Positions 19,299 through 50,635 of a stretch of 64,000 nt of DNA are shown here, piece after piece. Made by a program: the position numbers and the translations under genes. This DNA is from Candidatus Kaiserbacteria bacterium (GTDB lineage Bacteria > Patescibacteriota > Minisyncoccia > Phycocordibacterales > Phycocordibacteraceae): contig DAIDIW010000002.1 of assembly GCA_027451665.1 (NCBI GenBank), positions 146,766 to 210,765 on the forward strand, read 5' to 3'. The notes under the pieces are model-generated. The model saw nothing but the letters and a program-made list of their open reading frames with translations. It had not been told where the DNA came from and did not search any database. Positions within the stretch are counted from its first letter, which is position 1. Each line of letters starts with the position of its first letter.

Positions 19299-19733
19299 TT
19301 ATACGCGGCGAGGTTTAGGCGGGCGCGGACCGTTGTGCGGCACCGGCGTTGCGTCCTTGATGGAACGTATCTGCACCCCTTTGCCTGCAAACGCGCGGAC
19401 AACGGACTCGCGGCCGGCGCCGACGCCGCGAATAACGACCGTCGCCTCCTTAAGGCCAATTGTCATCCCCTTCTCCCCAAGCAATTCGCCGACCTTAGCG
19501 GCCGCATACGGAGTCGATTTTCGCGCGCCCGAAAAGCCGAGGCTTCCGGCTGACGACGAGATGATCGCGTTCCCCTTCTCGTCCGTAAGTACTGCCTTCG
19601 TGTTATTGAAGGTCGCCTCCACGTGGAGAATGCCTTTCTCGATGTGTCGCTTGGTGGTCTTCGACAGCGCGCGGTCCTTGCGTCCTTGGTCGAGACCGCG
19701 GCCTCTCTTCTTAACGATACGCTTCTTTCCCAT
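19299..19733 (-). CDS. rpsK: 30S ribosomal protein S11
   Basis: HVEATFNNTKAVLTD ... RKSTPYAAAKVGE ... PHNGPRPPKPRRV. Confidence 0.9.
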   Translation of the reverse strand: MGKKRIVKKRGRGLDQGRKDRALSKTTKRHIEKGILHVEATFNNTKAVLTDEKGNAIISSSAGSLGFSGARKSTPYAAAKVGELLGEKGMTIGLKEATVVIRGVGAGRESVVRAFAGKGVQIRSIKDATPVPHNGPRPPKPRRV

Positions 19734-19764
19734 GCTGGATGATTATCAAATGAGTATCTAAGAA

Positions 19765-20145
19765 CTACGTCTTCTCGAGCGTACGACGACCGCTCGTCAT
19801 CGTTTTTCGTACGTTGCCGCGGCGGGTCCGCGAGTTGGTCTTCGTACGTTGATTTCGAACCGGCAGGCCCCGTTCGTGGCGGAGGCCGCGCCATGCGCGA
19901 ATATCCTTCAAGCGCTTCACGTTGCTGCCGATCTCCCGGCGAAGTTCACCCTCAATCGTGTAGCCCTCACAAAGTGAACGGACGAGCTGTTCCTCCTCAG
20001 GACTAAGCTCGCCGCCCTTCTTATTGAACGGTACGCCCGCCTTCGTGAGGATATCCTTGGCGCGTGCCGGACCGATACCGTAAAGAATCGGCAGCGCATA
20101 CGAGAGCTGCTTGTCGTCTGGAATGGTTACACCTGCAATACGCAT
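19765..20145 (-). CDS. rpsM: 30S ribosomal protein S13
   Basis: MRIAGVTIPDDKQLSYALPILYGIGPARAKDILTKAGV; start at ATG 20145. The track ORF extension is the out-of-frame read-through of rpmJ. Confidence 0.9.
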   Translation of the reverse strand: MRIAGVTIPDDKQLSYALPILYGIGPARAKDILTKAGVPFNKKGGELSPEEEQLVRSLCEGYTIEGELRREIGSNVKRLKDIRAWRGLRHERGLPVRNQRTKTNSRTRRGNVRKTMTSGRRTLEKT

Positions 20146-20167
20146 AAGTACGAAAATAGTATGACGC

Positions 20168-20284
20168 CTAACCCTGGCGCGCCTTGCGGCGCGGGTTCTT
20201 CTTATTGATACGGTACAGCCGACCACCGCGACGGACGATCTGATCACCTGGCTGCTGCACGCGGATCGAAGCACGTACTTTCAT
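20168..20284 (-). CDS. rpmJ: 50S ribosomal protein L36, zinc-free variant
   Basis: Unlisted 38-aa [41 protein letters not shown] between infA and rpsM. It matches L36 (MKVRASV...KHKQRQG), but the C-x2-C-x12-C-x4-H zinc ligands are replaced by Q, D, N, R. Confidence 0.75.
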
Positions 20285-20301
20285 CAGTAAGAAGATTAGA
20301 T

Positions 20302-20535
20302 TTAAGACAAACGTCGCACGATTCGAGCTCGGCCGCCATACGGATCGAGAACCATCTCGACCTGATCGCCTACGAGCACGCGAATACGATGCAGTCGCAT
20401 CTTGCCCGCAAGGTATGCGAGGACGAGCTCGCCCTCATCTGCCCCATCAGCTCCCGGAAGGCGTACACGAAATAACGAATTCGGCAGCACCTCTTCGACG
20501 ATGCCGGTCGCCGTGTTCTGTTCACCTTCCTTCAT
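20302..20535 (-). CDS. infA: translation initiation factor IF-1
   Basis: [65 protein letters not shown]; S1-like OB fold. Confidence 0.9.
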
Positions 20536-20580
20536 GCGGATACGTTCATGACTATAGCAAGGGGCCCGGAAATGGTCAAA

Positions 20581-21828
20581 TTACCGGTTCGGATTCGTTA
20601 CGGTGACCTTGATCGACGAAGGGTCTTGCGGGAAGGATGAGCGCCAGAAGGGGCGCAGAATGAGGACCGCTCGCTTCACCTCCGGATAGTTCGTAAGTGC
20701 CACCTCTGCGGCTGACCGGCTTTTCCCGGCCACTGCCGCTGCGATTCTGCCGGGGTCGACGGTATAGGTAAGATTCGCGGTGCCCGCCAGGGTGAATGCG
20801 AACTGGGAGGATGCGGGCGTCGGATAGCCCGAAATCGGGGTAAGGGTGAGTCCGCTCGTCGAGGAAAGCGTGAGCGGTTCGCCCTGGTAGCCGAGGCCGG
20901 TTATCGAGGTTGCAATGCTTTTCGCGAGCGCGGCTGACGGGAAAATAATAGCCGTCTCGGTCGCCTGCTCCTTCACATCAACCTGGCCAGTGGTGGCTGA
21001 TGGCGTCGGCGTTAGCTCATCGAACGTTGTAGTAGCAGCGCCCGAGAGAAGCACATACCCTGCAGGTATCTGACTTTGAATGCTGGACACGAGATCAGGC
21101 GCGAGCGCAGTCTTAAGCGAAGTTACGGCGGATTGCTCAGTCGCAGGCGCAACCGTTGGCACGGTCCCGCTTGCACCGCCAATCATGGGAGTCGCCGAAC
21201 GGGCGGTAATCTTCGTCGCGAGCGCGGTACCGTCGAGTCCCGGGACCGTGAACGAGGTGGGCCCAATGTTGTAGGAATCACCGGACTGGTCCGCTGTTAC
21301 CTCGACCTCGATGCTTCCGGGCGTAGATATCGAGCCGCCTGGCACGGTCACCGCCTTGCCGATGCGGAAGATGAGGCCGGACGGAGTCGCAAAACGCGTG
21401 TCTGTTACGAGCCGTTGGGCACGTAGCTCCGTGTTATAGATCGTTATTTGGCCCGTTGCCTTGCTATTTACCTGCTTAGTGCCCGAACCTTGCACGCTCT
21501 GCGTCGCGATCTTCTGAACGGTGAGTATTTCGAACGGAAGATCGCCCGTGCTCTTATCAGCCGTGAAGGAGTTCTGGACCGCCGTTGTTACGGTGCTTGG
21601 CGTTACCTGTACTTCCGCGCTTGAGAAATAGAAGAGGGCGCCGATGGACACGAATATGACGACAAAGATGCCGATAAGGGTCGCGTAGGGGAATCGTGGG
21701 GGCCGCGGGGTAAGGCGGAGCGGCTCGCGAGAGATACCGGGCGACTGCGGGGCCTGCAAGTCGGTCACTGGAGCAGGCTCCATCTCCTTGCGGCGAGACG
21801 GCGGGATTATGTCATCGAGTTTGCGCAT
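20581..21828 (-). CDS. hypothetical bitopic membrane protein (N-in, 1 TM, large Thr/Ser/Ala-rich extracytoplasmic domain)
   Basis: 415 aa; cytoplasmic Pro/Arg-rich N-terminus, TM LIGIFVVIFVSIGALFYF, then beta-rich low-complexity domain. Topology like PilN/FtsQ-type partners of actin-like ATPases. Confidence 0.45.
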   Translation of the reverse strand: MRKLDDIIPPSRRKEMEPAPVTDLQAPQSPGISREPLRLTPRPPRFPYATLIGIFVVIFVSIGALFYFSSAEVQVTPSTVTTAVQNSFTADKSTGDLPFEILTVQKIATQSVQGSGTKQVNSKATGQITIYNTELRAQRLVTDTRFATPSGLIFRIGKAVTVPGGSISTPGSIEVEVTADQSGDSYNIGPTSFTVPGLDGTALATKITARSATPMIGGASGTVPTVAPATEQSAVTSLKTALAPDLVSSIQSQIPAGYVLLSGAATTTFDELTPTPSATTGQVDVKEQATETAIIFPSAALAKSIATSITGLGYQGEPLTLSSTSGLTLTPISGYPTPASSQFAFTLAGTANLTYTVDPGRIAAAVAGKSRSAAEVALTNYPEVKRAVLILRPFWRSSFPQDPSSIKVTVTNPNR

Positions 21829-21887
21829 AGTTTCCAGTATACCTGAGGAATGACGCGTCGCGGCTCCTTTTGCACATACCTCCCCTG

Positions 21888-22925
21888 CTACTCATCATGA
21901 CCGTGTTCCTTCCAGTAAAGCGTCATGAGTTGCATCACGATATCCGGCTCCACTTCGGCGCCCTGCTTCATCGGCGGCAACTGCTTCATCCGGATAGGAA
22001 CGAGTTTCGGAGGGTCATCAGTAAGCCACATTTTTCCAAGATCTGCCCCTTCGAGCGCGCGTTGTACCGGCTCAAGATGATCGTCATCCGCGAGAATGAA
22101 GATGATGCGAGGCAAAGGATATCGCGTGGCGAATTCGCCGAATGCGTTTACTACCTCGCCAATCCATTCGGGCGAGCCGGCTTCCCCGTCTGGCAGCTCT
22201 TTTACTGCGACCAAAAGTCCCTTCCGAATAAGCGAAATGGCGATTTCAGGGCCGCTCGCGTCAAGCAAGAACGCGTTACGCTCGTGCGGGAATACGCTGC
22301 GTACGGCTTGATAGCGCAGTGAGCTCCCCGCGATTGTCGGTATACGCTCCGTGTGGAACAACGAGCGTAATACCCCGGCTATTGCGCGCGCTACAGCCTC
22401 ATCGATGAAGGATACGAGCATGATGACCTGCGCACGCATGACCTGTTTTCCGAACGGCTCATGCGTCTCATAACCGTTGAGCGTGGTACCGACGATGCTT
22501 TCATCGACAAGCAGTTTGCCCTTGGGCGTCACCGCTGCTTTCCGTATAGCAGCGTCAAGCATCCTGCGGGTGAATGTGAAAGGCTTTTTATCCTCAAATT
22601 TTTCGTAACGCAGCATGGTCGACTGCCAGGGGGCGCTTATGGAGACAAGAAGCGCTTCTGCCCTGCCGGATCCGGTAAGACGCGCAAGCGCTGGGGCGCC
22701 ATCGCGTACGAGCGTGTCGCAGAGCTCCTTAAGCGTGCGCGTCATGGCACTCACGTCGTCCTCGTGCTCCTTTGGCTCGATGCTCAGACGACGCGCATAG
22801 GCGATCGTCGCCTGCGCATCCGGAGTAAAGTGCGCATATGCCCCCGCAACGGAGCCGGCGCCTATGTCTAGGAGCAGTATTGACTCCGCTTCAGGCTTGT
22901 TGAAGAGGCGCGCGAAAAATCCCAT
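21888..22925 (-). CDS. actin/Hsp70-fold ATPase, FtsA/PilM-like
   Basis: N-terminal phosphate-1 motif ILLLDIGAGSVAGAYA; later DASGPEIAISLI (phosphate-2-like). Start at ATG 22925 (MGFFARLF). Confidence 0.5.
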   Translation of the reverse strand: MGFFARLFNKPEAESILLLDIGAGSVAGAYAHFTPDAQATIAYARRLSIEPKEHEDDVSAMTRTLKELCDTLVRDGAPALARLTGSGRAEALLVSISAPWQSTMLRYEKFEDKKPFTFTRRMLDAAIRKAAVTPKGKLLVDESIVGTTLNGYETHEPFGKQVMRAQVIMLVSFIDEAVARAIAGVLRSLFHTERIPTIAGSSLRYQAVRSVFPHERNAFLLDASGPEIAISLIRKGLLVAVKELPDGEAGSPEWIGEVVNAFGEFATRYPLPRIIFILADDDHLEPVQRALEGADLGKMWLTDDPPKLVPIRMKQLPPMKQGAEVEPDIVMQLMTLYWKEHGHDE

Positions 22926-22985
22926 GTGGTGACAGTATACGGCATGCGTTTCGCAGAACCGTACACAAGGAGGATAAAATAACAC

Positions 22986-24926
22986 TCACTCGAGCACGGC
23001 CTTGATACGGCGCACTCCTGCCGAAGACGCTTCCTCCTTTTTGATCTTGAAGCGCCTCCCTCCTTCGCCGAGTTCCTTGGTATTCGAGACGTGCGGACCG
23101 CCGCAGAACTCGATTGAGAACGCTCTACCGAATTTTGGGTCTTCCGGGGTTGCGTCTTTCGGCCCTACCGAGTACACGGAGACGGTGTCCGGGTAGCTCG
23201 CGCCGAACTCGTGCTCCGCGCCCAACTTCTCAGCCTCCTCTTTGGGCATCACTGTGCGGGTAACCGGCAGCGCCTCGTCTATCTTCTCGTTCACAATGCA
23301 CTCTACTGCCGCCTTCTGTTCGTCGGTCATCTTCGCGCCATGATTAAAGTCAATACGAAGTCGCTCGCTCGTGATGTTGCTACCGCGCTGGTGCACGTCA
23401 GGCCCGAGCACCGTCTGGAGCGCCTTCAAAAGGAGATGGTGCGCGGTGTGATAGCGTACAGTCTGTTCCCCGTGGTCTGCGAGCCCGCCTGCAAATTTCT
23501 GTACAGCTCCTGCGCGCGAGGTCTCACTGTGTTTACGAAGTAGCACTTGCACGAGCTCGTCTCTAATCTCTAGTCCACGTGCGGTAGCTTCCTCGCGGAC
23601 AAGCTCATACGGAAAACCGTAGGTCGTTATAAGTTCGAACACTGCTTCGGCACGTAGGGTACGGACCTCGTTTGTTCCGCTGATTGAGCTAACGATCACC
23701 TTTTCAAACTCGCGCATACCTCTCTCGAGCGCCTTACGGAACTGTGCCTCTTCCCTTTCAAGTGCGTCCTTGATATGGGTCGCCTGCGTAAGCACGTACG
23801 GATACTGCTCCGAGTAGGCGCTCCCGTAGCCCTTTGCGACGTCTGCCAATACGGCCTCCTTAATACGGAGTTTGTCCGCTTCGCGGATAGAACGGCGGAT
23901 AAGGCGGCGGAGTACGTAGCCCTGCTCGCTATTACCCGGAAGGATGCTGCTCGCGAGCATAAAGCTTGCTGCCCGCATGTGGTCGAGAATAATGCGAAAC
24001 GAGATCGTCGTTACGAGATTATCGTCATAGCGCATGCCTGAACGCTCCTCGAGCACGGCACGCGCCTTATCGAATACGTCGATCAGGAAGACATCAGGAT
24101 TGCTGCGCGTCGCTGCCGTGAGCCGTTCGAGCCCACCTCCGAAGTCGACGTTTTGCTTTGGCAGCGGGGCAAACGAGCCATTCTCCCGCTTGACGAACTG
24201 CATGAAGACGGAGTTTCCTATCTCGATGAAGCGTCCGCAGTCGCAATTGGGGTGACAATGGGGACCGAACCGCTCGTCGTGCTTGGTGCCGAAATCGTAG
24301 AACACCTCCGAGTCCGGGCCACCAATCTCTCCCGCCGGCATCTTTGCGGGGACGCCCGCACGGCTCCACCAGTTCTTCTTTGCGCCATAGGCGAAGATAC
24401 GTCCGTCCTGCATGCCGAGTTCACCTCCCCGTTCTTCAGTGCCAAGTGGTACGAATTTGGCTTCGATGCCCTTGTCACGGAAGAGGCTCTTCCAGATCTC
24501 TACCGCCTCTGTGTCAAGCGGCGTGCCAGTGTCCTCATCGCCGGCAAATACGGTGACGTAAAGCCTTTCGGGATTAAGCGCCAACCCTTCCTCTTTATCG
24601 GTCAAAAATCCAAAAATCCATGGGAGCTGCTCCTTCTTGAAATAGTCGCCGAGGCTCCAGTTGCCAAGCATCTCGAAGAAGGTAGTGTGGCGGTTATCTC
24701 CTACTTCCTCGATGTCCTCCGCGCGGAAGGACAGCTGCGAATCGGCGAGGCGGCGTCCTTGCGGATGTTCCTGCCCCATGAGGTACGGGACTAGCGGTTG
24801 CATGCCCGAGCTGGTAAAAAGCGTAGTCGGATCGTTCTCAGGAACGATAGGTCCCGAGGGGATGATGGCATGCCCTCGTCTCCGGAAGAATTCCAGATAT
24901 CGGCTGCGGACTTCACTAACCGTCAT
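22986..24926 (-). CDS. alaS: alanyl-tRNA synthetase lacking the C-terminal C-Ala/oligomerisation region
   Basis: N-terminal RYLEFFRRRGHAIIPSGPIVPENDPTTLFTSSGMQPLVPY ... FEMLGNWSLGDYFK. Editing-domain motifs HTAHHLLLKALQ and CGGPHV are present. 646 aa versus about 870 canonical. Confidence 0.85.
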   Translation of the reverse strand: MTVSEVRSRYLEFFRRRGHAIIPSGPIVPENDPTTLFTSSGMQPLVPYLMGQEHPQGRRLADSQLSFRAEDIEEVGDNRHTTFFEMLGNWSLGDYFKKEQLPWIFGFLTDKEEGLALNPERLYVTVFAGDEDTGTPLDTEAVEIWKSLFRDKGIEAKFVPLGTEERGGELGMQDGRIFAYGAKKNWWSRAGVPAKMPAGEIGGPDSEVFYDFGTKHDERFGPHCHPNCDCGRFIEIGNSVFMQFVKRENGSFAPLPKQNVDFGGGLERLTAATRSNPDVFLIDVFDKARAVLEERSGMRYDDNLVTTISFRIILDHMRAASFMLASSILPGNSEQGYVLRRLIRRSIREADKLRIKEAVLADVAKGYGSAYSEQYPYVLTQATHIKDALEREEAQFRKALERGMREFEKVIVSSISGTNEVRTLRAEAVFELITTYGFPYELVREEATARGLEIRDELVQVLLRKHSETSRAGAVQKFAGGLADHGEQTVRYHTAHHLLLKALQTVLGPDVHQRGSNITSERLRIDFNHGAKMTDEQKAAVECIVNEKIDEALPVTRTVMPKEEAEKLGAEHEFGASYPDTVSVYSVGPKDATPEDPKFGRAFSIEFCGGPHVSNTKELGEGGRRFKIKKEEASSAGVRRIKAVLE

Positions 24927-24972
24927 AGAGCAGAAGATAGCATAGCGACACGCTTTCTTATACTATGCACCC

Positions 24973-26946
24973 ATGACGAAACAGGACTGGGGATTCGATA
25001 CGAAGGACATGGACCGGAAGGTCCGACCGCAGGATGACTTCTATCGGTATGCCGGCGGCGGCTGGATCTCTCATACCAAAATGCCTTCCGACGAGACTCG
25101 ATGGGGCGCGTTCTCCATACTCGTGAAAAAAACACAGGAGCAGCTGCATGAGATCGTAAAGGAACTCGTTGCGAAGAAGGGAGCGAAAACTGGCACTCCT
25201 GAGCAGCTGGTCGGCGACTTCTTCAAGAGCGGCATGGATGAGGCACGGCGGGAGAGGCTCGGCATTGAGCCGCTTCTACCGCTTTTTGGACGCGTCCGGA
25301 AGGTAAGGACTCATGAGGAGCTCGTGGACCTCTTGGCGCAATTCGACCGTATTGGCATCAGCGCCCCGTGGGGCGCATTCATTGATCAGGACGCGAAGGA
25401 CAGCGACCGTACGCTGCTGCATCTCATGCAATCAGGTCTCTCGCTGTCAGACCGTGATTACTACTTGAAAAATGATGCGGAGTCGTTGCGCGTGCGTCAC
25501 GCACTTGCAAGACACATACCGAAGCTTCTCGCGCTGGCCGGATTTGATGCAAAGGAAGCTAAGCATCGTGCTGACGTCGTGATGCGGATCGAGACTCAAC
25601 TTGCGAAACGTCAGATGGACAAGGTGGATTGTCGGGATGTCGAGAAGACTTACCATAAGATGAAAATCGCGCAGCTCGCAAAAATCGCGCCTCAGGTGGA
25701 CTGGCGTCGCTATCTGGTGCGGCTTGGTGCGGATCCTGAGCTCGACCTCGTCGTGATGCAGCCTGAGTATCTTAAGAAGGCGGCGTGGTACTTCGCGCGC
25801 GTACCGGTGTACGAATGGCAAGTCTATCTCGAGTGGCAGATTCTAAACGGATTCAGTGGTGCACTCTCAGATGCGTTCGTGAAGCAGAATTTTAACTTCT
25901 ATGGGAAAGCACTTGCGGGATTGAAGCAGATCCGCCCGCGATGGCGTCGCGTCCTTTCGACGGTCGATGGCGGCCTCGGCGAACTCATTGGAAAGATCTA
26001 CGTGGAGCGGCACTTCTCGCCTGAAGCGAAGCGTGCTATGGAGGAGTTGGTCGGGAATCTGTTCGAAGCGTATGCTGCGCGTATACGGAGTCTCGATTGG
26101 ATGAGTGGTACAACGAAAAGGAAGGCGCTCGCGAAGCTCGCACAGATGCACCACAAGATCGGGTATCCACGCAAGTGGAGATCCTATCCGGGCCTTAGGA
26201 TTGATCCGCGGGACTATGTAGGAAATATCCTGCGTACTGCTGAGCACGAGCACCGGCGTGCGATGAGGAAGCTCCATAGGAAAACAAACCGTGACGAGTG
26301 GTTCATGTACCCGCAGACGGTGAATGCGTACTATGCCCCCAGCCTAAATGACATCGTCTTTCCCGCAGCGATCCTACAGCCTCCCTTCTTTAGCGCACTG
26401 GCAGACGCGGCGGTGAATTACGGTGCCATAGGCGAGGTTATTGGGCATGAGATGACCCATGGATTCGACGATCAGGGTGCAAAGTTCGATGGCAAGGGAA
26501 ACCTCAAGACCTGGTGGACGAGGGAAGACAAGGCACGCTTCGAGCGTAAGACGAAGCTTCTCATAAAGCAATTTGATGCGTATACGGTAGCTGACGGTGT
26601 CCCGGTGAATGGTAAGTTTACGCTCGGAGAGAACGTTGCGGATCTTGGCGGCGCAGCGATCGCCTATGACGCGTATACGCGCCATCTCGAGAAGCACCCT
26701 GAGGAAGACTGCGAGATTGACGGCTTCACGCCGTTACAGCGATTCTTCCTTGGATTCTCGATCTTCGAGCGAGAGATTGTGCGACCTGAGTATCAAAAGC
26801 TCGCCGCGATCCATGACCCGCACTCTCCTGGCATCTATCGCATCAACGGACCGCTCTCGAACATGACCGAATTCTACAGAGCATTTGATGTAAAGAAGGG
26901 CGACAAGCTCTGGCGCGCGCCGAAGGACCGCGCAAAGATCTGGTAG
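24973..26946 (+). CDS. pepO: M13 family zinc metalloendopeptidase (PepO / neprilysin-like)
   Basis: HExxH VIGHEMTHGFDDQG and GENVADLGG (ENxADxGG), 657 aa. Largest + strand gene in the window. Confidence 0.85.
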   Translation: MTKQDWGFDTKDMDRKVRPQDDFYRYAGGGWISHTKMPSDETRWGAFSILVKKTQEQLHEIVKELVAKKGAKTGTPEQLVGDFFKSGMDEARRERLGIEPLLPLFGRVRKVRTHEELVDLLAQFDRIGISAPWGAFIDQDAKDSDRTLLHLMQSGLSLSDRDYYLKNDAESLRVRHALARHIPKLLALAGFDAKEAKHRADVVMRIETQLAKRQMDKVDCRDVEKTYHKMKIAQLAKIAPQVDWRRYLVRLGADPELDLVVMQPEYLKKAAWYFARVPVYEWQVYLEWQILNGFSGALSDAFVKQNFNFYGKALAGLKQIRPRWRRVLSTVDGGLGELIGKIYVERHFSPEAKRAMEELVGNLFEAYAARIRSLDWMSGTTKRKALAKLAQMHHKIGYPRKWRSYPGLRIDPRDYVGNILRTAEHEHRRAMRKLHRKTNRDEWFMYPQTVNAYYAPSLNDIVFPAAILQPPFFSALADAAVNYGAIGEVIGHEMTHGFDDQGAKFDGKGNLKTWWTREDKARFERKTKLLIKQFDAYTVADGVPVNGKFTLGENVADLGGAAIAYDAYTRHLEKHPEEDCEIDGFTPLQRFFLGFSIFEREIVRPEYQKLAAIHDPHSPGIYRINGPLSNMTEFYRAFDVKKGDKLWRAPKDRAKIW

Positions 26947-26988: not shown

Positions 26989-27660
26989 CTAAAGCCAGTC
27001 GATCGGCGCGGAGCCATTCGCCTCGAGGTATTCGTTCGCCTTCTTGAAGTGACCGTTACCAAAGAATCCGCTATTAGCTGAGAATGGCGAAGGATGCGCA
27101 CTCTCGAGCACGAGATGTTTAGTGGGGTCGATATGCGCGCCTTTCTGCTTCGCATAGTTCCCCCAGAGCATAAAGACAAGATGCTCGCGTTTGTCGGAAA
27201 GGGCTTTCACAGCTGCATCGGTGAACGTCTCCCACCCTTTCCCCTGATGCGAACCGGCCAGATGAGCGCGAACGGTAAGAGTCGCGTTCAGGAGTAACAC
27301 ACCTTGGGTCGCCCAGCGCTCGAGGCTGCCGTCACGATGGATCATCGACGCGCCGTATTCATCCTCAATCTCTTTGAAGATGTTCTGGAGCGAGGGGGGT
27401 AAGCGCTGTCCTTGGTCCACAGCGAAGCAGAGCCCGTTCGCCTCGTTGGGACCGTGGTACGGATCTTGCCCGAGAATGACGACTTTCACCTTGTCGAAGG
27501 GACAGAGGTCGAACGCGCGGAAGATAGCGCGCGGCGGCGGGTAGACCGCCTCAGTCTCATATTCGCGCTTCACGAACGCAGCCAGTTCCTTGAAGTACGG
27601 CTGCTCGAATTCAGCCGAAAGGCGCATCTTCCAGGAAGGATCTATACGGACCTCACGCAT
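26989..27660 (-). CDS. ung: uracil-DNA glycosylase (family 1)
   Basis: VVILGQDPYHGPNEANGLCFAV (GQDPYH water-activating loop) and HPSPFSANSGF (HPSPLS leucine loop). Confidence 0.9.
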   Translation of the reverse strand: MREVRIDPSWKMRLSAEFEQPYFKELAAFVKREYETEAVYPPPRAIFRAFDLCPFDKVKVVILGQDPYHGPNEANGLCFAVDQGQRLPPSLQNIFKEIEDEYGASMIHRDGSLERWATQGVLLLNATLTVRAHLAGSHQGKGWETFTDAAVKALSDKREHLVFMLWGNYAKQKGAHIDPTKHLVLESAHPSPFSANSGFFGNGHFKKANEYLEANGSAPIDWL

Positions 27661-27665
27661 GGCAG

Positions 27666-28463
27666 CTACTGTTTCCGCTTGCGATGCTCGCGCAATAACG
27701 TCTTACCGGCAGCTTCCCGGTAGCTGCAGAAATCGCACGGGCCGCCGCCAAATGAGGTGCCCGATGCTGGAATGTCGTCACTCACGAGCATCGACTTGAG
27801 GCTAAACAAAAGCGGTTCAATCCACTCCTGCGCGCCGATATACGGGATCAGCTTCACGTCAAATTCAAGCTTACCGTCGAAGGCCGGCGCATCTGAATTG
27901 CCGTTCACATACACGAAATAACCGGTCGGAGAAACGGAAAAGCCGTTCATACGGAACAGCCACTGGTAGATCTCCATCTGTCGCTTATACGAATCGTACA
28001 GATCATCTTCGGTAGACGGTCCGATCTTCTTACTCGTCGCCTTGTAGTCAACGATGATAAGCTCTCCAGCCGGTGTTTCCCATACATCGTCGACGCCGCC
28101 TCGAATGATGAGATCCGTCGGTTCGTGATGATATGCGATACCTCGCTTCAGCGCGTCGCGCCACTCCTCGAGCCGTTCGTCCGCGCAAGGTACCGCTTCG
28201 ATGCCATAGGCCTGCATAAGAGGATGCGGCTTGCCCTCGGCGCGATGAACGTCAAATTCGCGTTTGAGAAGCTCGTCGACCGCGTTATTCAGCGTGAACG
28301 AAGGTCCAGAAGGTCGCTTAACGCCGAACTTAAGGTCGAGGTAGGCGCAGCGAGGGCATTCAGCGAACAGGTCGAGCTTCGAGCGGCTCACGACGAACGG
28401 GCCGCCTTTAGGATCGTACGGCCCCCAGAGCTTCTTGGCTTTTGCAAGAGCGGACGTCGTCAT
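27666..28463 (-). CDS. Cas4-like / RecB-family PD-(D/E)xK nuclease with putative 4-Cys Fe-S cluster
   Basis: N-terminal SKLDLFAECPRCAYL, IIVDYKAT (D-x-K core), QMEIYQWLF (QhxxY motif), C-terminal CDFC. One CxxC at each end gives the four Cys arrangement of Cas4/AddB Fe-S domains. No CRISPR repeats nearby. Confidence 0.6.
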   Translation of the reverse strand: MTTSALAKAKKLWGPYDPKGGPFVVSRSKLDLFAECPRCAYLDLKFGVKRPSGPSFTLNNAVDELLKREFDVHRAEGKPHPLMQAYGIEAVPCADERLEEWRDALKRGIAYHHEPTDLIIRGGVDDVWETPAGELIIVDYKATSKKIGPSTEDDLYDSYKRQMEIYQWLFRMNGFSVSPTGYFVYVNGNSDAPAFDGKLEFDVKLIPYIGAQEWIEPLLFSLKSMLVSDDIPASGTSFGGGPCDFCSYREAAGKTLLREHRKRKQ

Positions 28464-28984
28464 CGTGTCGTGAAGTAAGCGATGACCGGTTGGCCCGTAT
28501 CGAAATCAACGTAAACGCTATCTGTCGAGAGATCGAAGGTATTACTGCCTCCGTCCCGATAGAGCTCAATAGCGTATGTGCCGCCTGGAACCGTTGCGCG
28601 CAAAAGCGGGACCGTAAAATCTGTTCGAGGACCGCCAGCGTGCGCGGCGCCAAGTACGTTTCCGAGCGCGTCGTCATCGACTTCGCGGACGGCAACCCAG
28701 ACGCCAGGAGGCGGGATGGTAACTGAAGCAACAGTCACAGTATTACCTGCCGGTTGATCGGTAACCGATACGACACCGCTCGGTGTGCTTACAAGCGGGC
28801 TCGAAGACGCGGCCGGAGCCTGTGCTGCCGCATTAGGAGGAGTCGCCGGCGTCGCGTAAAACCAAGCGGTAAGAAGCAGCGCGCCGAGGATGAGGCCCCC
28901 GACAAAGGATGTGAGTGAGAACTCTCGCATCGTCATACGCACATACCTTAACACATCAGCGCTCGAGAGCCGGAACTCCCTCAT
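28460..28984 (-). CDS. hypothetical membrane-anchored extracytoplasmic protein
   Basis: TM FVGGLILGALLLTAWFYA followed by a beta-rich domain; 4-nt overlap with the downstream nuclease gene. Confidence 0.4.
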   Translation of the reverse strand: MREFRLSSADVLRYVRMTMREFSLTSFVGGLILGALLLTAWFYATPATPPNAAAQAPAASSSPLVSTPSGVVSVTDQPAGNTVTVASVTIPPPGVWVAVREVDDDALGNVLGAAHAGGPRTDFTVPLLRATVPGGTYAIELYRDGGSNTFDLSTDSVYVDFDTGQPVIAYFTTR

Positions 28985-29825
28985 GAGGCATAGCGAGCAG
29001 CCCTTCGGCCTCGGCGAGCAGCTCGCCTACCCCCTCGGGTGCCAAGTGGAGAGGATCGAGCAACGTGCGGTCCGCGACGATCTGGTCTACTGCCACGACA
29101 CGAGCATCAATGAGTAGCCGTTTTTCGGCTCTCGAGAGGCTGGTGAGCGCGGTGATTGGGTAGACGCGGGCGCGGTACATGCGCGTAAGGAGGCAGTCCT
29201 GCCGCGGATAGCTCCAGCCTAGGAGCTCAACGCCTGCACACTCGGCGTATGCGATCGCCTCGCTCGTGAATTTAGTGTTCGTCACAAGAAGGCCGCGATC
29301 GATGGGGCAGGTACGTTCGGCGGGATCACAGGCGAAGATGTCATCGAACCGGCTCTTCACATAGAGCGCAACCTTGAGATCTGTTTTGTAGCCCGGATCG
29401 TTGTGATACTTGAGCTCGGCCGCCAGATATTCCCCGCGTCCCGGATGCGACGCATAGAAGTCGGTCTCATGCGTCACGCACTTGCCCCTTATGAGTTTTC
29501 GTGTCTCGACCGTCCAACCTTCAGCTGCGAAAAGATGCGAGACGAAGTCCTCGAACGGATGTCCGGAGGGCCCGAATTCCAGCATCGCGCGACGAAGCGC
29601 ATAGCGCGCCGCTACGGGGCGGCCTTCCTTGCGCAAGAGCGAAAAAGCGCGTGCATAGACTTCTTTCGAAGTGGTGCCCGCAACGATCGTCGAGCGAATC
29701 TGCTCCGAAATATCCTCCGCGGCGCGTGTCGCTGCGCCGGCACGGCGCAGCGACGACACGAGACGCTCCGGATCGAATGCCTCGGTCGTCCCGTCTGCCT
29801 TGATGATGGGAGGAAGCGCGCTCAT
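28956..29825 (-). CDS. ATP-cone domain fused to restriction-endonuclease-like (Mrr-cat type) domain
   Basis: N-terminal IIKADGTTEAFDPERL ... matches the ATP-cone consensus (VIKRDGxxExFdxxKI) of NrdR/NrdA. Central FEDFVSHLFAAEGW...D...GID-like region resembles the Mrr N-terminal catalytic fold. ATGA overlap with the upstream gene. Confidence 0.5.
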   Translation of the reverse strand: MSALPPIIKADGTTEAFDPERLVSSLRRAGAATRAAEDISEQIRSTIVAGTTSKEVYARAFSLLRKEGRPVAARYALRRAMLEFGPSGHPFEDFVSHLFAAEGWTVETRKLIRGKCVTHETDFYASHPGRGEYLAAELKYHNDPGYKTDLKVALYVKSRFDDIFACDPAERTCPIDRGLLVTNTKFTSEAIAYAECAGVELLGWSYPRQDCLLTRMYRARVYPITALTSLSRAEKRLLIDARVVAVDQIVADRTLLDPLHLAPEGVGELLAEAEGLLAMPHEGVPALER

Positions 29826-30229
29826 TGGACGGTCGTGCTTGCGGCTATCCCGTTCACGGTAACGACGACGGGCGCCCCCTTAGGGGCTACGACGGTCGTC
29901 GAGAACGGTATCTGCGTAGGAAGTTCGAGACACACGCCCGAATCGGGAGGCATATCAAGCGAGAGCGCTATCGAGGTGCTGGACGCTTTGGTCGTCGTTG
30001 CGTACGCGGTCACCGTCGCGCAAGCATCAGGCGCGAGTACGGCCCCTGCAAGCGTATGCGTGCCTCGGCGGTAGGTATCCGTGTAGGTCACTGAAGGCGT
30101 CGTCGTCGCAGGCGCCGGTGCACGGGCCACTTGCCCCAAATCCCTCGTATGCGGTACTGAGAGGGCGAACCCGCCAAGAATAAGTATCCCAATGATTCCT
30201 GCCGCGGTCCAGAAGCGCTTTGTTTGCAT
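29822..30229 (-). CDS. hypothetical small membrane-anchored protein
   Basis: Likely start at MQTKRFWTAAGIIGILILGG (internal ATG about 30228); the track ORF upstream part overlaps the mnmA C-terminus. Thr-rich extracytoplasmic tail. Confidence 0.35.
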   Translation of the reverse strand: MQTKRFWTAAGIIGILILGGFALSVPHTRDLGQVARAPAPATTTPSVTYTDTYRRGTHTLAGAVLAPDACATVTAYATTTKASSTSIALSLDMPPDSGVCLELPTQIPFSTTVVAPKGAPVVVTVNGIAASTTVQ

Positions 30230-30272
30230 ATCGCGATAGTAGCACAGGCGTCCGAGCCTCCGACAGACGCAC

Positions 30273-31268
30273 TCACGAAAGAATCGCGCCGCCCACGAGC
30301 GCGTTGTCCGCGTCATAAAAAACGATGGACTGGCCGGGTGCGTATGGCTCCGACAGGAGTTCATGAGGAATGAAGTGCGAAGTCTCGACGATTCCTCGTA
30401 TGCGCGGCCCTCGGTAGCGCAGTTGCGCCGCTACGGCGCGGTCCGGATCCTGTATCCAATTTTCATAATCGTAGGAGAGCGGCGCAATCGGTTGTGGATT
30501 TCGTTCGTGCGCGACGACGAGACGATTCTGCGTCATATCCTTCGCGCGGACAAACCACGGACCTGGCTGCTTGGTATCGAAAAGCGCGATGCGTTCGCCG
30601 AGCGTGTAGAGAACAGCACCTTCGTGGCGGCCGATCCGTATCCCTTCGGTATCGTATGCGTCGCCCGGGTCCGGATGAAAGGTCTGCCGAAGGAATTCGT
30701 CCACTGAAATATCGCCGAGGAAGCAAACCCCTTGCGAGTCGGGTTTCTCGGCTATGGGTAAGCCATATGCGCGTGCAAGTGCGCGCACCTCTTCCTTTGT
30801 CTTTCCCTTGAGCGGGAACATGAGCGCCTTCCACGTCGTCTTTGGTATGGCCCAGAGGAAATAACGCTGATCCTTTTCGCCATCAAGATAATGGCCTGTC
30901 GCGAGGTAATCGGCGCCATGTTCCTGCGCGAATGCGTAAAGCACGCCGAATTTTACCTCGCGATTGCACATCACGTCAGGATTCGGCGTACGTCCGGCTC
31001 CGTATTCCTTGATAAGGTAGTCGATCACGGCGCGCTTATAGGCTTCGCGCGCGTCGAGTGTCATGAACGGAAGCTGGAGGCGCGCTGCCACGCGCATCGC
31101 GTCGCGGCGATCTTCCGCCCAAGTACAAGGCATGCCGGGGGGGTACCACCCCTTTACGAATACCGCATACACGTCAGCGCCGGCTTCCTTAATGAGCGCT
31201 GCGCTCACAGCCGAATCCACGCCGCCTGAGAGCCCTACGAACACGCGCTTTCCGCGGAGGTCCTGCAT
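30273..31268 (-). CDS. mnmA: tRNA-specific 2-thiouridylase MnmA
   Basis: VFVGLSGGVDSAVSAALIKEAGADVYAVFVKGWY (PP-loop SGGxDS), catalytic Cys context, 331 aa. Confidence 0.85.
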   Translation of the reverse strand: MQDLRGKRVFVGLSGGVDSAVSAALIKEAGADVYAVFVKGWYPPGMPCTWAEDRRDAMRVAARLQLPFMTLDAREAYKRAVIDYLIKEYGAGRTPNPDVMCNREVKFGVLYAFAQEHGADYLATGHYLDGEKDQRYFLWAIPKTTWKALMFPLKGKTKEEVRALARAYGLPIAEKPDSQGVCFLGDISVDEFLRQTFHPDPGDAYDTEGIRIGRHEGAVLYTLGERIALFDTKQPGPWFVRAKDMTQNRLVVAHERNPQPIAPLSYDYENWIQDPDRAVAAQLRYRGPRIRGIVETSHFIPHELLSEPYAPGQSIVFYDADNALVGGAILS

Positions 31269-31308
31269 GGAGCCATCCTACGGAGCATAGGTGTTCCATG
31301 CAACCGCG

Positions 31309-32316
31309 CTATGAGTGGAGATAGAGCCGCTGATTCGCAAGCTGCTCGGGATACGTCCTCGCATAATGCATGAGGCCGTCCGTCCCGGTGAGATAATAGA
31401 GATCATCAGTCTTGGCAGGCTCAGCGGCCGCAGTAAGTGAATCGAGCCCCGGATTATCGATCGGGCCGGGCGGGAGTCCCCTGTGGAGGTAGGTATTGTA
31501 AGGGGAGTCGACCCCGAGATCTACAAGCGAAGGCGCGTAGGTGCTTCGATTGAAGATGAAACCGAAGACGGCATCAACCTGAAGCGGCATGCCATCATTG
31601 ATACGATTCCACAAGATACCGGACACCATCCGCCGAGAATCGGGCGTACGCGCCTCCTTCTCTATAAGCGATGCCATGATCACTATTTGGGAAAGAGTGT
31701 GTCCGGACGCGTGAATCGCCGACAAAAGTGACGCAATCTTAGCATTAAAGTTATCATGCATAGTCTTGACGATGGTTTGAGCGGTTGCATCCGGCGGAAA
31801 AAGATACGTGTCTGGGAAGAGATAACCTTCGTCTGGACCGGCGACCGTAATAAAATCAGATACCGATATCCCCGGATACGCGGCCGCAACCTTCGCCGCC
31901 ATATCACGCACGGTCTCGCCTTCTGCAAAGGTTATGCGAGTCGGCGGGATACCGAAGATTCCCGCACCGAGGCGCGACGCGACGCGAAACATGTCCTCGG
32001 GATACGTGAGGCGGTAAGGGCCGGGGTGAATGTGCGCACTCGCCCCTGTAAACCGTAAGAGATATCGGAACGCAAGCGCTGAGCGCACGACGTGATCTCG
32101 CGCGAGCACCTGCGCCACCTCCTCAGCCGAAGCGCCTTGAGGAATTGTGACTAACGAGTCGCGCGGATACCCTGCAGGAGGCGAAGCGAGAAGCCAGTAC
32201 GCGAAAGCAACCACGAGGACAAAGGCGCACACGATTGCCCAGATCGCGCGGTAGCGGATGAAATGGGCGCTTAAGCTCGACCGCGCAGCGGCGATGATGC
32301 GTGAAAGGTAGCCCAT
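31309..32316 (-). CDS. mltG: endolytic murein transglycosylase MltG (YceG family)
   Basis: N-terminal TM, YceG-like domain with GYLFPDTYLFP and IVIMASLIEKEA; 335 aa. Confidence 0.8.
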   Translation of the reverse strand: MGYLSRIIAAARSSLSAHFIRYRAIWAIVCAFVLVVAFAYWLLASPPAGYPRDSLVTIPQGASAEEVAQVLARDHVVRSALAFRYLLRFTGASAHIHPGPYRLTYPEDMFRVASRLGAGIFGIPPTRITFAEGETVRDMAAKVAAAYPGISVSDFITVAGPDEGYLFPDTYLFPPDATAQTIVKTMHDNFNAKIASLLSAIHASGHTLSQIVIMASLIEKEARTPDSRRMVSGILWNRINDGMPLQVDAVFGFIFNRSTYAPSLVDLGVDSPYNTYLHRGLPPGPIDNPGLDSLTAAAEPAKTDDLYYLTGTDGLMHYARTYPEQLANQRLYLHS

Positions 32317-32319
32317 GCG

Positions 32320-33762: not shown

Positions 33763-34833
33763 TTACGCTACGGTGTACGTGCCGTCCTTCGTGCGCTTGA
33801 AATGCTTCGGGTCATTCAGATTAACGAGGATGGTATTGTCTTTCACGATACGCGCTTTCTTCACGCGCTTCACAATGTCTTCCTTCGTGAGAGGGCCGGA
33901 TTCCTCAAGGACCTCGCGGATGACATCGCGTACGACGCCTGGCTTATAGCCCCATTCGGTGAGCGCATAGAGACCACGACCGACAAGCACGAAACGCGGA
34001 TCCTTGATGAGCTCGTTGTGCGTGGTGGCGACATGCGCTTTCTTAGAGAAGGTCGTCGTGATTGTCTTTGCTACATCCGCAAAGTGCATGGGCTCGCCTT
34101 TTCGCTTAATCGTAAGATACGCGTAATCCCGTATCCCCTTCGTACGTATGGCCGGCGCTGATACGCGGCCCCATTCGGACAGCGGATTCCTGCCGAGCTT
34201 TTTCGAAAGCGAGAGCCACCGCTTCAATACTTCCTCGTCGCGGTAGGCGTCATTCACGTTCTTAAGCTCATCGAGGAAGCGGTCGAGAAGTTCCGATTCC
34301 GGAACGATCTCGTCATCTTTGAGCGACCCGTAGAGTGCGGTCAGGGCTTCATGGATTTTCTTCGCGGTTGCAGCATCGATATGCCAGCGCGCGAGGAACT
34401 CATCAGTCTCGCGTTCGCGATAAAACGCTGAACCGAGCATGAGGAGAAAACGGAACCGGTTACGGCCCTTCTCATCGGTCGCGAGCGATTCCAACAGCTC
34501 TTCCTCTGACACCATGGCGCCGAGTTGGTCGATATGATCGGCAAGCTCCTCAAACGCGCCGGACGCATCCTTGAATGCAACACTTGCGCGGATCGATTCG
34601 AGGCCTGCGGCCTCGATCTGACGCACGCGTTCACGTGTGATGCCTGACCGATCGCCGATCGCCTCGAGCGTCTCGCGCTTCGTATTCGCTCCTAGCCCGA
34701 AGCGGCGCACGAGCACGTCGCGCGGACGTTCTGCGGCAGCCGCAAGAAGTTTCTTCACGACGGCTACGCTGTCAAACGTGAAGGTGGTCCTGCTTCGACC
34801 CGGCGTCAGCTTCGTCTTGTTTTTCATAGGCAT
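33763..34833 (-). CDS. DNA-binding protein with sigma-70 region-4-like HTH and C-terminal HARE-HTH-like domain
   Basis: DVLVRRFGLG...ETLEAIGDRSGITRERVRQIEAAGLESIR is a sigma-70 r4 / LuxR-like HTH. C-terminal VLVGRGLYALTEWGY matches the G-R-G-x-Y-x-L-x-E-W hallmark of HARE-HTH. Start at ATG 34833 (MPMKNKTK). Confidence 0.55.
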   Translation of the reverse strand: MPMKNKTKLTPGRSRTTFTFDSVAVVKKLLAAAAERPRDVLVRRFGLGANTKRETLEAIGDRSGITRERVRQIEAAGLESIRASVAFKDASGAFEELADHIDQLGAMVSEEELLESLATDEKGRNRFRFLLMLGSAFYRERETDEFLARWHIDAATAKKIHEALTALYGSLKDDEIVPESELLDRFLDELKNVNDAYRDEEVLKRWLSLSKKLGRNPLSEWGRVSAPAIRTKGIRDYAYLTIKRKGEPMHFADVAKTITTTFSKKAHVATTHNELIKDPRFVLVGRGLYALTEWGYKPGVVRDVIREVLEESGPLTKEDIVKRVKKARIVKDNTILVNLNDPKHFKRTKDGTYTVA

Positions 34834-34879
34834 GTGGTCTAGTTTATAGCAAATGTTTCGAGAATCGTCAATTTTGTGG

Positions 34880-50102: not shown

Positions 50103-50126
50103 TGTGCGGGAGAATATAACAAACTT

Positions 50127-50197: not shown

Positions 50198-50235
50198 CGT
50201 GCGCGCAGCATACCACGCACCCACCGTGCTGCGAA

Positions 50236-50631: not shown

Positions 50632-50635
50632 AGTA

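Follow-up and report, generated by a model that had tools for sequence, protein, structure and literature searches.

The described systems closest to the locus studied here are FtsA-FtsN, PilM-PilN, and GspL. The N-terminus of FtsN binds FtsA at subdomains 1A/1C, PilN carries the peptide motif INLLP, and GspL is a single chain, in which a cytoplasmic actin-like domain lacking subdomain 2B and not binding nucleotide is followed by a TM helix and an outer domain. A further point of comparison is the baseplate wedge module J/gp6, which elsewhere dimerizes and builds rings. Few bacterial groups are as diverse and as poorly understood as the Paceibacteria (Parcubacteria), with most of their conserved core proteins lacking an assigned function.

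Here, we analyzed a stretch of 64,000 nt from Candidatus Kaiserbacteria bacterium (GCA_027451665.1, contig DAIDIW010000002.1, forward-strand positions 146,766-210,765), referred to as the window, with a focus on two neighboring genes termed ORF-A and ORF-B. Our best explanation, put forward tentatively, is that both products together may form a two-part membrane-spanning scaffold, which would belong to the housekeeping equipment of Kaiserbacteria and of Paceibacteria related to them. Literature searches on baseplate J in CPR, on FtsA/PilM in CPR, on division and pili of Parcubacteria, and on the dcw cluster in CPR yielded no description of the pair and no usable statement on FtsA in Parcubacteria; such a scaffold is probably previously undescribed.

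Genomic locus

All genes considered here lie on the minus strand, in the order alaS, ORF-A, ORF-B, infA-rpmJ-rpsM-rpsK-rpsD-rpoA-rplQ, and then rplM and rpsI, with the downstream gene names backed by the Pfam annotation of their counterparts in relatives. ORF-A (21888..22925) encodes 345 aa from the ATG at 22925 and ORF-B (20581..21828) encodes 415 aa, confirming the content of 20581-22925 as given by an earlier inspection of the letters and their open reading frames (the sequence-only reading). The conserved neighbor directly 5' of ORF-A is alaS (22986..24926), recognized by Pfam as well as NCBIfam. Downstream, infA (20535..20302) and rpmJ (20284..20168, 38 aa), together occupying 20168..20535, are conserved and mark the beginning of the alpha-operon block.

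The sequence-only reading had pointed out that secY, adk, and map are missing from this position. This proved correct, with alaS standing directly upstream of ORF-A and neither an adenylate-kinase P-loop nor a SecY-like ORF seen across the 64-kb window. Its conclusion that the two genes had been inserted where secY-adk-map normally sit was not borne out, as the upstream neighbor is alaS, not rplO, and the order alaS-A-B-infA extends lineage-wide. Since this order is kept even where the ORF-A of relatives is only ~16-20% identical to the window protein, the arrangement is, judged from gene order, an old breakpoint of the ribosomal superoperon, ancient across the lineage, rather than a local insertion. 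Synteny throughout the lineage likewise rules out a recent insertion of ORF-A and ORF-B.

The distances within the locus are short in relatives as well: in 63 of 72 loci, <200 nt separate ORF-A from the preceding alaS, and in 73 of 77, infA follows ORF-B within <400 nt. The wider conserved block reads mltG...alaS-A-B-infA...dnaJ, peptidoglycan genes are present in the window, and a neighborhood of >20 genes is frozen in its order across the lineage. No pil or fts genes were detected in the 64-kb window, and an Rfam scan of the window returned tRNAs only. ORF-A is not located in a dcw cluster beside ftsQ/ftsZ, but between alaS and ORF-B/infA, which holds for the window as well as for 73 of 75 related loci.

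ORF-A has an FtsA/PilM-type fold

For ORF-A, 214 homologs were found, and the 120 of them that were listed are all ~345 aa long and share the same start point. These 214 homologs of ORF-A and the >7000 homologous clusters of ORF-B indicate that both are real genes. HMM searches, named by the sequence-only reading as a way to verify its assignment, came back empty, with neither ORF-A nor ORF-B matching any Pfam or NCBIfam profile at E<=1. The window ORF-A accordingly had no match to Pfam FtsA (PF14450), SHS2_FTSA, or NCBIfam ftsA at the curated thresholds. The AF2 model of ORF-A (pLDDT 86, pTM 0.83) was compared with known structures by Foldseek. FtsA was the best match (E 1.8e-16, TMq up to 0.64), represented by structures from T. 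maritima, S. aureus, E. coli, and Vibrio (E 1e-16 to 1e-13), followed by PilM (5eoy, E 6e-15; 2ych, E 4e-12); GspL structures did not occur among the top 50 matches. The actin fold of the FtsA/PilM type, including subdomain 1C, had thus been called correctly from the letters. ORF-A has an actin/ASKHA fold with subdomain 1C replacing 1B, as seen in the model, in the Foldseek matches, and in the colinearity of the sister-clade profile (A4) with FtsA through 1C.

On sequence level, hhalign connected the profile of Kaiserbacteria ORF-A (A1) to A4 (99.3%, E 3e-20). A4 in turn matched FtsA (E 3.6e-5; residues 10-242 against 13-245, with phosphate-1 and phosphate-2 included) and E. coli FtsA in particular (E 6.8e-5). 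A1 itself gave nothing significant, neither against PDB sequences nor against E. coli FtsA by hhalign. As a consequence, homology had to be established via the sister clade, and the sequence homology of ORF-A to FtsA is only transitive. Sub-threshold Pfam FtsA matches occurred in 18 of 29 family members, the best PF14450 score within the sister clade being 26.9 bits vs a cut-off of 31.8. Such weak matches may lead domain-based surveys to annotate family members wrongly as FtsA. PilM_2 of Pfam was absent from the window ORF-A and from all 29 family members, PilM was not among the matches of the profiles to PDB, and the sequence links of the ORF-A family lead only to FtsA and Ppx.

The phosphate-1 motif on which the sequence-only reading had built its assignment is present (residues 16-25, ILLLDIGAGSV). 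In alignments A1 and A3 it extends over residues 16-28 (ILLLDIGAGSVAG; 22842..22880, minus strand), with D20 at least 90% conserved across the family, and it aligns via A4 with EIGTAKV of E. coli FtsA. The phosphate-2 region, located by the sister-clade alignment at residues 219-231 (FLLDASGPEIAIS; 22233..22271, minus strand), is degenerate. D222 is conserved and the GG..TD part is lost, the position reading LLDASGPEI in the window clade vs DVGGEVTD (D(V/I)GGE(V/I)TD) in the sister clade. A Gly-Gly adenosine motif is lacking in ORF-A, where strand-helix 274-293, mapped to this position by inference from secondary structure, reads IIFILADDDH. In addition, ORF-A shows a gap of ~45 residues compared with the sister clade, placed exactly at the 2B helices, and just a short loop (245-252) occupies the 2B position in the model. 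Given the degenerate phosphate-2, the missing adenosine glycines, and the loss of 2B, an ATPase activity of ORF-A appears doubtful. The sequence-only reading had made its call of an actin-fold ATPase dependent on the presence of the other actin motifs; the fold withstands their loss, the label “ATPase” does not.

ORF-A ends 4-10 residues past its last conserved core helix (329-341) and, with no C-terminal extension beyond it, has no obvious membrane-targeting helix of its own; neither the alignment nor the AF2 model contains a C-terminal amphipathic or membrane-targeting helix. Such a protein might be the sole, highly diverged FtsA ortholog of the lineage, moved away from the dcw cluster, with ORF-B as a tether replacing the amphipathic helix of FtsA. 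FtsA being its best fold match and only cytoskeletal sequence match, the missing C-terminal extension, and the presence of the pair throughout the sampled lineage in a core housekeeping locus are all consistent with this reading. We nevertheless consider it improbable, since the ORF-A of this clade lacks subdomain 2B, with which FtsA binds the C-terminal peptide of FtsZ, and CPR genomes are generally reported to retain ftsA-ftsZ within the dcw cluster.

ORF-B is a bitopic membrane protein with a conserved N-terminal peptide

Homologs of ORF-B comprise 7070 clusters at 50% identity (E<=1e-3), and those across Kaiserbacteria are 60-65% identical. The protein contains one strongly hydrophobic segment at residues ~48-69 (KD19 maximum 2.5), which coincides with AF2 helix 48-69 and represents the TM helix (21622..21687, minus strand). 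It is preceded by 46 basic, Pro-rich residues (9 K+R vs 6 D+E) and followed by an ectodomain consisting of Thr, Ala, and Ser to 38%, in agreement with the N-in bitopic topology proposed earlier.

The extreme N-terminus is formed by a conserved cytoplasmic peptide (MRKLDDIIPPSRR; 21790..21828, minus strand), which we propose as docking peptide for ORF-A. Its core DDIIPPSRR is near-invariant in Kaiserbacteria, with D6, I7, P9, P10, S11, R12, and R13 being at least 90% conserved, and is followed by a variable linker. Within distant homologs, the pattern x-[DQE]-D-[IV]-[IV]-P-P stays at the extreme N-terminus, while the linkers are hypervariable and range from 20 to 170 aa. A conserved cytoplasmic peptide in this place is the hallmark of PilN-/FtsN-type partners, supporting the PilN-type topology that had been suggested for ORF-B.

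The extracytoplasmic domain (residues 70-415; 20584..21621, minus strand) combines a beta-barrel with alpha/beta domains in a baseplate wedge J/gp6-like fold. Fold comparison matched it to the GlxA beta-barrel, a non-phage domain and the best single match, and to J-like baseplate wedge proteins. The ectodomain expected from the letters, either ferredoxin-like as in PilN/PilO or POTRA as in FtsQ, is thereby replaced by a different one, and no POTRA plus beta domain of the FtsQ/DivIB type was found in it. The baseplate similarity covers only ~120-160 residues of ORF-B at a low global TM-score and may reflect just a common beta-barrel domain. Pfam Baseplate_J (PF04865) gave weak matches in 5 of 42 ORF-B homologs (best E 6.7e-4) and none for the window ORF-B. 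PHROG 6 was matched by distant ORF-B homologs only, the window proteins giving nothing useful against PHROGs. SpaD-type sortase-pilin chains, reached by the ORF-B profile in PDB at only E 0.04, were judged to be a compositional match and discarded.

These properties of ORF-B bear on two further readings of the pair. A divergent inner-membrane platform of a type IV pilus or related fiber, with ORF-A as PilM, ORF-B replacing PilN/PilO, and the remaining machine encoded elsewhere, is in our estimation quite unlikely. Although PilM structures are among the top Foldseek matches to ORF-A, ORF-B follows the PilN-like logic of N-terminal peptide, variable linker, and single TM helix, and CPR cells are rich in pili, the ORF-A family has no sequence-level link to PilM and the ectodomain of ORF-B is not ferredoxin-like. 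Furthermore, no pilB, pilC, pilT, or pilin genes were found in the window or in the flanks of the loci of six relatives (9-10 kb per side where the contig allows), and the locus is a housekeeping block.

The wedge-like fold itself would suit a domesticated part of a contractile injection system or phage baseplate, providing an extracellular attachment or puncturing platform for episymbiosis with ORF-A as its cytoplasmic organizer. We assign little probability to this reading, as sheath, tube, gp25, spike, and other wedge genes are absent from the window and from the gene tables of six related loci. Moreover, the wedge architecture aligns in part only, with GlxA as the best single match, and N-terminal TM anchors are not a feature of baseplate proteins.

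Linkage of ORF-A and ORF-B

A TATACT -10-like hexamer is located 8 nt upstream of the ORF-A ATG (22934..22939, minus strand), without a Shine-Dalgarno sequence. Of 61 unique sequences upstream of ORF-A in relatives, 57 have TGnTAGAAT ending 6-7 nt ahead of the ATG and 59 have a TAnnnT hexamer of some kind ending 4-20 nt ahead of it. The same hexamer (GGTATACT; 21836..21841, minus strand) is found 7 nt upstream of the ORF-B ATG, again without Shine-Dalgarno; in relatives, TGnTATACT precedes this ATG, and a TAnnnT hexamer ends 4-20 nt before it, mostly 6-8 nt, in 79 of 79 unique upstream sequences. The gap separating ORF-B from infA contains TTGACC-17-TATAGT (with TG; 20551..20579, minus strand; 10/12 matches), the only such site within 19700-25100. 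On the basis of these patterns, ORF-A and ORF-B each appear to stand behind their own predicted leaderless-type promoter, and infA behind its own promoter-like element. Co-transcription of ORF-A and ORF-B is thus not required.

Throughout the Kaiserbacteria-type lineage and in the Paceibacteria relatives sampled, the two genes stay together: in 73 of 75 distinct related loci that could be assessed, ORF-B directly follows ORF-A. A generic low-complexity surface protein unlinked to ORF-A, the case in which the sequence-only reading would have seen its proposal fail, can be set aside in both respects, as ORF-B is tightly linked, conserved (mean column identity 68%, 76 invariant columns), and has a folded model. 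In locus L087, stop and start of both genes overlap in ATGA. Beyond that, one lineage has A and B fused in frame between alaS and infA, the junction being intact in three assemblies; the fused variant P0259 has a length of 855 aa. Such a fusion fixes the topology, as it puts the N-terminus of ORF-B in the cytoplasm together with the actin-fold domain. A second fused protein, P0242, was not accepted as strong evidence and may be an artifact, because it was seen on a single contig and its linker results from read-through of the intergenic promoter. Two loci (L078 and L082) carry an ORF-B with intact N-terminal motif and no ORF-A within 8 kb; the motif may have another partner there, or relocation of ORF-A may explain its absence.

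In a neighborhood of >20 genes frozen in order, adjacency alone is weak evidence, and the separate promoter-like elements as well as the two genomes lacking an adjacent ORF-A would fit functionally independent, merely syntenic neighbors, but the fusion junction conserved in three assemblies, the ATGA overlap, and the complementary architecture of an anchorless cytoplasmic adaptor beside a bitopic protein with conserved cytoplasmic peptide make this very improbable.

Proposed membrane-spanning scaffold

The two-part scaffold would, in the best reading of these comparisons, be built like FtsA-FtsN, PilM-PilN, or GspL. ORF-A would represent an FtsA-derived cytoplasmic protein with subdomains 1A, 1C, and 2A, the clade having lost 2B and the Gly-rich phosphate-2 loop. 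As a consequence of this loss, ORF-A is probably a non-catalytic or weakly nucleotide-binding adaptor. ORF-B, held in the membrane by its single N-in TM helix, would dock with DDIIPPSRR on ORF-A, most likely on the 1A/1C region, comparable to PilN on PilM and FtsN on FtsA, and would thereby bring ORF-A to the membrane. The baseplate wedge (J/gp6)-like ectodomain may form an oligomeric platform on the outer side.

Regarding the cellular process served, our best guess is growth of the cell envelope or division, in preference to pilus assembly; the likeness of the modeled ORF-A fold to PilM nearly equals that to FtsA, and the pair may also act in pilus assembly. A bolder version of the scaffold, which we hold to be rather unlikely, would be an envelope machine present throughout the sampled Paceibacteria, composed of an FtsA-derived scaffold, a PilN/FtsN-like peptide, and a ring-forming wedge-like ectodomain. 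This would amount to a tail-less cellular use of the contractile-injection baseplate module, by which these ultrasmall episymbionts would organize division or the site of host contact.

No other housekeeping block of the genome is as conserved as the one that holds the pair, yet the pair is invisible to Pfam and NCBIfam. An FtsA-derived adaptor combined with a wedge-like membrane protein would offer a testable handle on envelope organization, division, or host contact. In parallel, the ORF-A family depicts a natural series of an actin-fold protein losing 2B and the phosphate-2 loop, which may inform on the evolution of GspL-like pseudo-ATPase adaptors.

Comparison with described systems

In comparison to the baseplate wedge proteins J/gp6/gp47 (Pfam PF04865, PHROG 6) and the GlxA beta-barrel (PF21110), ORF-B is distinguished by its N-terminal TM anchor, and the window protein stays below all Pfam thresholds. 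Its gene, unlike those of the wedge proteins, is accompanied not by tail, sheath, or spike genes but by that of an actin-fold partner, and belongs to a core housekeeping locus.

With PilM-PilN, the pair shares the fold class of PilM (E 6e-15) on the side of ORF-A and, on the side of ORF-B, the partner logic, in which a conserved peptide at the very N-terminus precedes a TM helix and an outer domain. In contrast, DDIIPPSRR is analogous to, not homologous with, INLLP, ORF-A has no PilM sequence similarity, the ORF-B ectodomain differs from the ferredoxin-like one of PilN/PilO, and pil genes are lacking nearby. Only the fused P0259 (855 aa) has the architecture of GspL/EpsL, and the ORF-A of Kaiserbacteria likewise lacks 2B, whereas the window has two separate genes, an unrelated outer domain, and no T2SS genes nearby.

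Compared with FtsA, ORF-A remains below the Pfam FtsA/SHS2_FTSA thresholds, has 2B with the FtsZ-binding site deleted, a degenerate phosphate-2, no adenosine GG, and no C-terminal amphipathic helix, and lies outside the dcw cluster; ORF-B carries a baseplate-J-like ectodomain and not the SPOR domain of FtsN. In common with FtsA-FtsN, ORF-A has the actin/ASKHA fold with 1C and a sister-clade profile colinear with FtsA 13-245, and ORF-B, as FtsN, is bitopic with N-in orientation and has a short cytoplasmic peptide, basic and conserved, at its N-terminus.

Gene order and predicted promoters

The sequence-only reading had placed an actin-like ATPase and a bitopic partner at 20581-22925, where secY, adk and map would be expected; gene order, phosphate-1 motif and topology confirmed this two-gene observation, and secY, adk and map were found neither at this position nor anywhere else in the window. 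All genes of the locus lie on the minus strand. After alaS (24926..22986) and a 60-nt gap follows ORF-A (22925..21888), encoding the 345-aa FtsA/PilM-fold protein, then after 59 nt ORF-B (21828..20581), encoding the 415-aa single-TM protein, and after 45 nt infA (20535..20302) and rpmJ (20284..20168). These are succeeded by rpsM, rpsK, rpsD, rpoA, rplQ, rplM and rpsI, with grpE, dnaK and dnaJ farther along. The ORF-A start was assigned to the ATG at 22925 and not to the GTG upstream of it, since the homologues are all ~345 aa long and open with the same MxFF sequence. Genes of the pil and fts families are absent from the 64-kb window.

The two genes are not just part of the ribosomal operon. 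A TATACT -10-like box (22934-22939, minus strand) lies 8 nt upstream of the ORF-A ATG and a second one, GGTATACT (21836-21841, minus strand), 7 nt upstream of the ORF-B ATG, while no Shine-Dalgarno sequence precedes either gene in the window. Relatives (L001-L084) carry a conserved extended -10, TGnTAGAAT or TGnTATACT, just 5' of the start codons. Among unique upstream regions, a TAnnnT hexamer ending 4-20 nt ahead of the ATG is present in 59 of 61 for ORF-A (57 of them with 6-7 nt) and in 79/79 for ORF-B (most commonly with 6-8 nt); from this spacing, leaderless mRNAs are predicted for both genes. A further site, TTGACC-17-TATAGT, is located between ORF-B and infA. In most relatives (L001, L003, L006, L009 and others), the last codons and stop of alaS (…A-V-L-E-stop = GCAGTGTTAGAATAA) double as the extended -10 box of ORF-A; the alaS end in the window differs (GTGCTCGAGTGA), and a separate TATACT box follows 50 nt downstream.

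Further features of the window were recorded. The 38-aa L36 encoded by rpmJ has zero cysteines and is therefore a non-zinc form. AlaRS is short (646 aa), matches NCBIfam NF002436 (595 positions) end to end and not the 847-position alaS model, and therefore appears to be this enzyme's short form. A predicted membrane protein of 456 aa, devoid of Pfam matches (32320-33690, minus strand), adjoins an mltG-like gene at 31309-32316, and a 424-aa protein with Sigma70 region 4 and a HARE-HTH domain (33763-35037, minus strand) overlaps, as called, the leuS start (34880-37744) by ~160 nt. A lone plus-strand 97-aa ORF (7701-7994; …YHGCDQDV…WLGTGYYFWEADPSRAMKWA…) is flanked by tRNA-Tyr/tyrS and a trpS-like gene, and six tRNA genes at 48728-52575 (minus strand; Ala-GGC, Ala-CGC, Pro-GGG, Pro-CGG, Val-CAC, Ala-TGC) alternate with ORFs for small membrane proteins and with the gene of a trypsin-like protease.

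Fold and descent of ORF-A

ORF-A had zero matches to Pfam and NCBIfam at E<=1. Its AF2 model is confident (pLDDT 86, pTM 0.83; 48 homologues as input) and has the topology of the FtsA/PilM type, with 1A strands, a long helix, an inserted beta-alpha-beta-beta 1C subdomain and 2A. Foldseek against the PDB ranked FtsA of four species first (E 1.8e-16 to 1e-13, TMq <=0.64) and PilM second (E 6e-15 to 4e-12), followed by BT_3980 and then Ppx/GppA, at ~10% sequence identity to these matches. On the sequence level, homology to FtsA is only transitive, via the sister-clade profile A4 (33 proteins of 360-390 aa, reached through the distant locus L085). The Kaiserbacteria profile A1 retrieved nothing from PDB sequences or against E. 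coli FtsA; it aligned end to end with A4 (probability 99.3%, E 3e-20), and A4 matched FtsA (E 3.6e-5, residues 10-242 vs 13-245, spanning phosphate-1, 1C and phosphate-2), including E. coli FtsA in hhalign (E 6.8e-5). Sub-threshold matches to Pfam FtsA occurred in 18 of 29 family members, 0 of them from the Kaiserbacteria clade. Model, fold search and transitive homology together bear out the proposed FtsA/PilM-like actin fold.

The designation as an ATPase is doubtful within the Kaiserbacteria clade. Phosphate-1 is present as claimed (ILLLDIGAGSV, residues 16-25). At phosphate-2, canonical-looking in the sister clade (D(V/I)GGE(V/I)TD), the aligned ORF-A reads LLDASGPEI; ~45 residues that make up the 2B helices of the sister-clade proteins are missing; and the adenosine Gly-Gly position, as mapped by secondary structure, reads FLLA.E or FIAADKEE in the family. 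ORF-A is thus probably a pseudo-ATPase in this clade. As the chain stops directly past the last core helix, it lacks an FtsA-type amphipathic tail. Residues 1-8 (22902-22925, minus strand) form a conserved hydrophobic M-x-F-F-x-x-(L/I/F)-F, disordered in the model (pLDDT <50) and also found in a distant fused protein (MSFFSF), which may be an element binding membrane or partner. A less probable rival reading takes ORF-A as the sole, diverged FtsA; the transitive homology speaks for it and the missing 2B helices against it.

Topology and ectodomain of ORF-B

ORF-B contains a single hydrophobic helix (residues ~48-69), and the basic, Pro-rich N-terminus ahead of it argues for an N-in orientation. 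Thr, Ala and Ser make up 38% of the ectodomain; a low-complexity reading was rejected on 76 invariant columns and a mean column identity of 68%. The AF2 model (pLDDT 78.6) shows defined beta-rich domains, for which Foldseek returned the phage baseplate wedge proteins Pa193 (E 8e-5), A-1(L) gp31 and Mu gp47 as well as the GlxA beta-barrel. Pfam Baseplate_J weakly matched 5 out of 42 homologues (E 6.7e-4 at best), distant homologues matched PHROG 6 ("baseplate wedge subunit") with E between 2e-5 and 1e-4, and Pfam GlxA was weak or faint in relatives. The fold searches are consistent, and the sequence profiles weakly agree, in pointing to a baseplate wedge. Since the alignments cover just ~120-165 residues with low global TM-scores, what is claimed is a wedge-J beta-barrel module within ORF-B, not a complete wedge protein; this partial match also counts against the rival of a domesticated baseplate serving host contact. 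PilN, PilO, GspM, FtsQ and POTRA were absent from fold and profile matches, so a PilN- or FtsQ-type ectodomain was not upheld. For another rival, a pilus platform, this result counts against it and the PilM rank in the ORF-A search in its favour.

The first 13 residues (MRKLDDIIPPSRR), which precede a variable stretch, are near-invariant within the clade. Among 141 family representatives with a recognisable TM helix, 95 carry [DENQH][IVLM][IVLFMT]P within the first few residues (for example QDIVPP, EDIIPP or QDVVPP, often followed by RSIRNIP), most others being close variants; between this peptide and the TM helix lies a non-conserved linker of 20 to 170 residues. A bitopic protein with a short conserved peptide at its extreme cytoplasmic N-terminus, encoded beside an FtsA/PilM-fold protein, resembles PilN-PilM and FtsN-FtsA. 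PilN and FtsN peptides bind the 1A/1C region of PilM and FtsA. The family-wide invariant residues of ORF-A outside the nucleotide-binding motifs, P99-W100 and N150-G151-Y152, are placed at or in 1C by model secondary structure, consistent with a putative binding site there.

Linkage and range of the pair

For both proteins, every homologue derives from a metagenome-assembled genome of Candidatus Kaiserbacteria, Paceibacterota or Minisyncoccota and carries the annotation "hypothetical". ORF-B is better conserved across the clade (60-65% identity vs 45-50% for ORF-A), and belongs to a very large wider family, with 7070 clusters (50% identity) at E<=1e-3 and 2352 at E<=1e-30.

Of 80 distinct related loci, 75 could be assessed for the pair, and in 73 of these ORF-B immediately follows ORF-A; infA is located <400 nt past ORF-B in 73/77 and alaS <200 nt ahead of ORF-A in 63/72. 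The distant relatives L085-L088 keep this order with ORF-A-like proteins only ~16-20% identical to that of the window, and their entire mltG-to-dnaJ block is syntenic. More generally, a block of >20 genes (mltG, mnmA, ATP-cone/Mrr_cat protein, PDDEXK, (DUF7282), UDG, peptidase, alaS, A, B, infA…rpsI, grpE-dnaK-dnaJ) retains its order across distant Paceibacteria (window 26989-33690; loci L001, L003, L085-L088). At L087, the ORF-A stop and ORF-B start overlap as ATGA. One lineage encodes an in-frame A::B fusion between alaS and infA (P0259, 855 aa), its junction preserved in three assemblies, two from ENA and one, frameshifted later on, from JGI. A second fusion, P0242, was discounted as read-through of the intergenic promoter on a single contig. 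In the exceptions L078 and L082, ORF-B is present with its N-terminal motif intact and no ORF-A within 8 kb. An unrelated 115-aa ORF occupies the ORF-A place in L078 (7487-8001), an M13 peptidase abuts ORF-B in L082 (5997-8001), and on a complete Kaiserbacteria chromosome (OY969413.1; L074, 9247-10356) a ~370-aa ORF lies between ORF-B and infA. The rival that both genes are merely syntenic could draw on L078 and L082 and faces the fusion and the overlap.

Proposed role and comparison with known systems

Our favoured reading is a bipartite trans-membrane scaffold. ORF-A would act as a cytoplasmic FtsA-derived adaptor that the ORF-B N-terminal peptide brings to the membrane, and the ORF-B ectodomain would build an oligomeric platform outside the membrane via its wedge-like module. 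Our guess is that the pair serves envelope growth or division rather than pili, since the sequence signal is specific to FtsA, the locus is a housekeeping one and pilus genes are lacking nearby.

A targeted full-text literature search found no description of the pair, which is a new, unannotated family pair on the known theme of an actin-fold adaptor combined with a bitopic partner. In architecture the pair resembles FtsA-FtsN and PilM-PilN, and the fused A::B form resembles GspL; without precedent is the baseplate-wedge-like ectodomain in a membrane-anchored, cellular, tail-less context.
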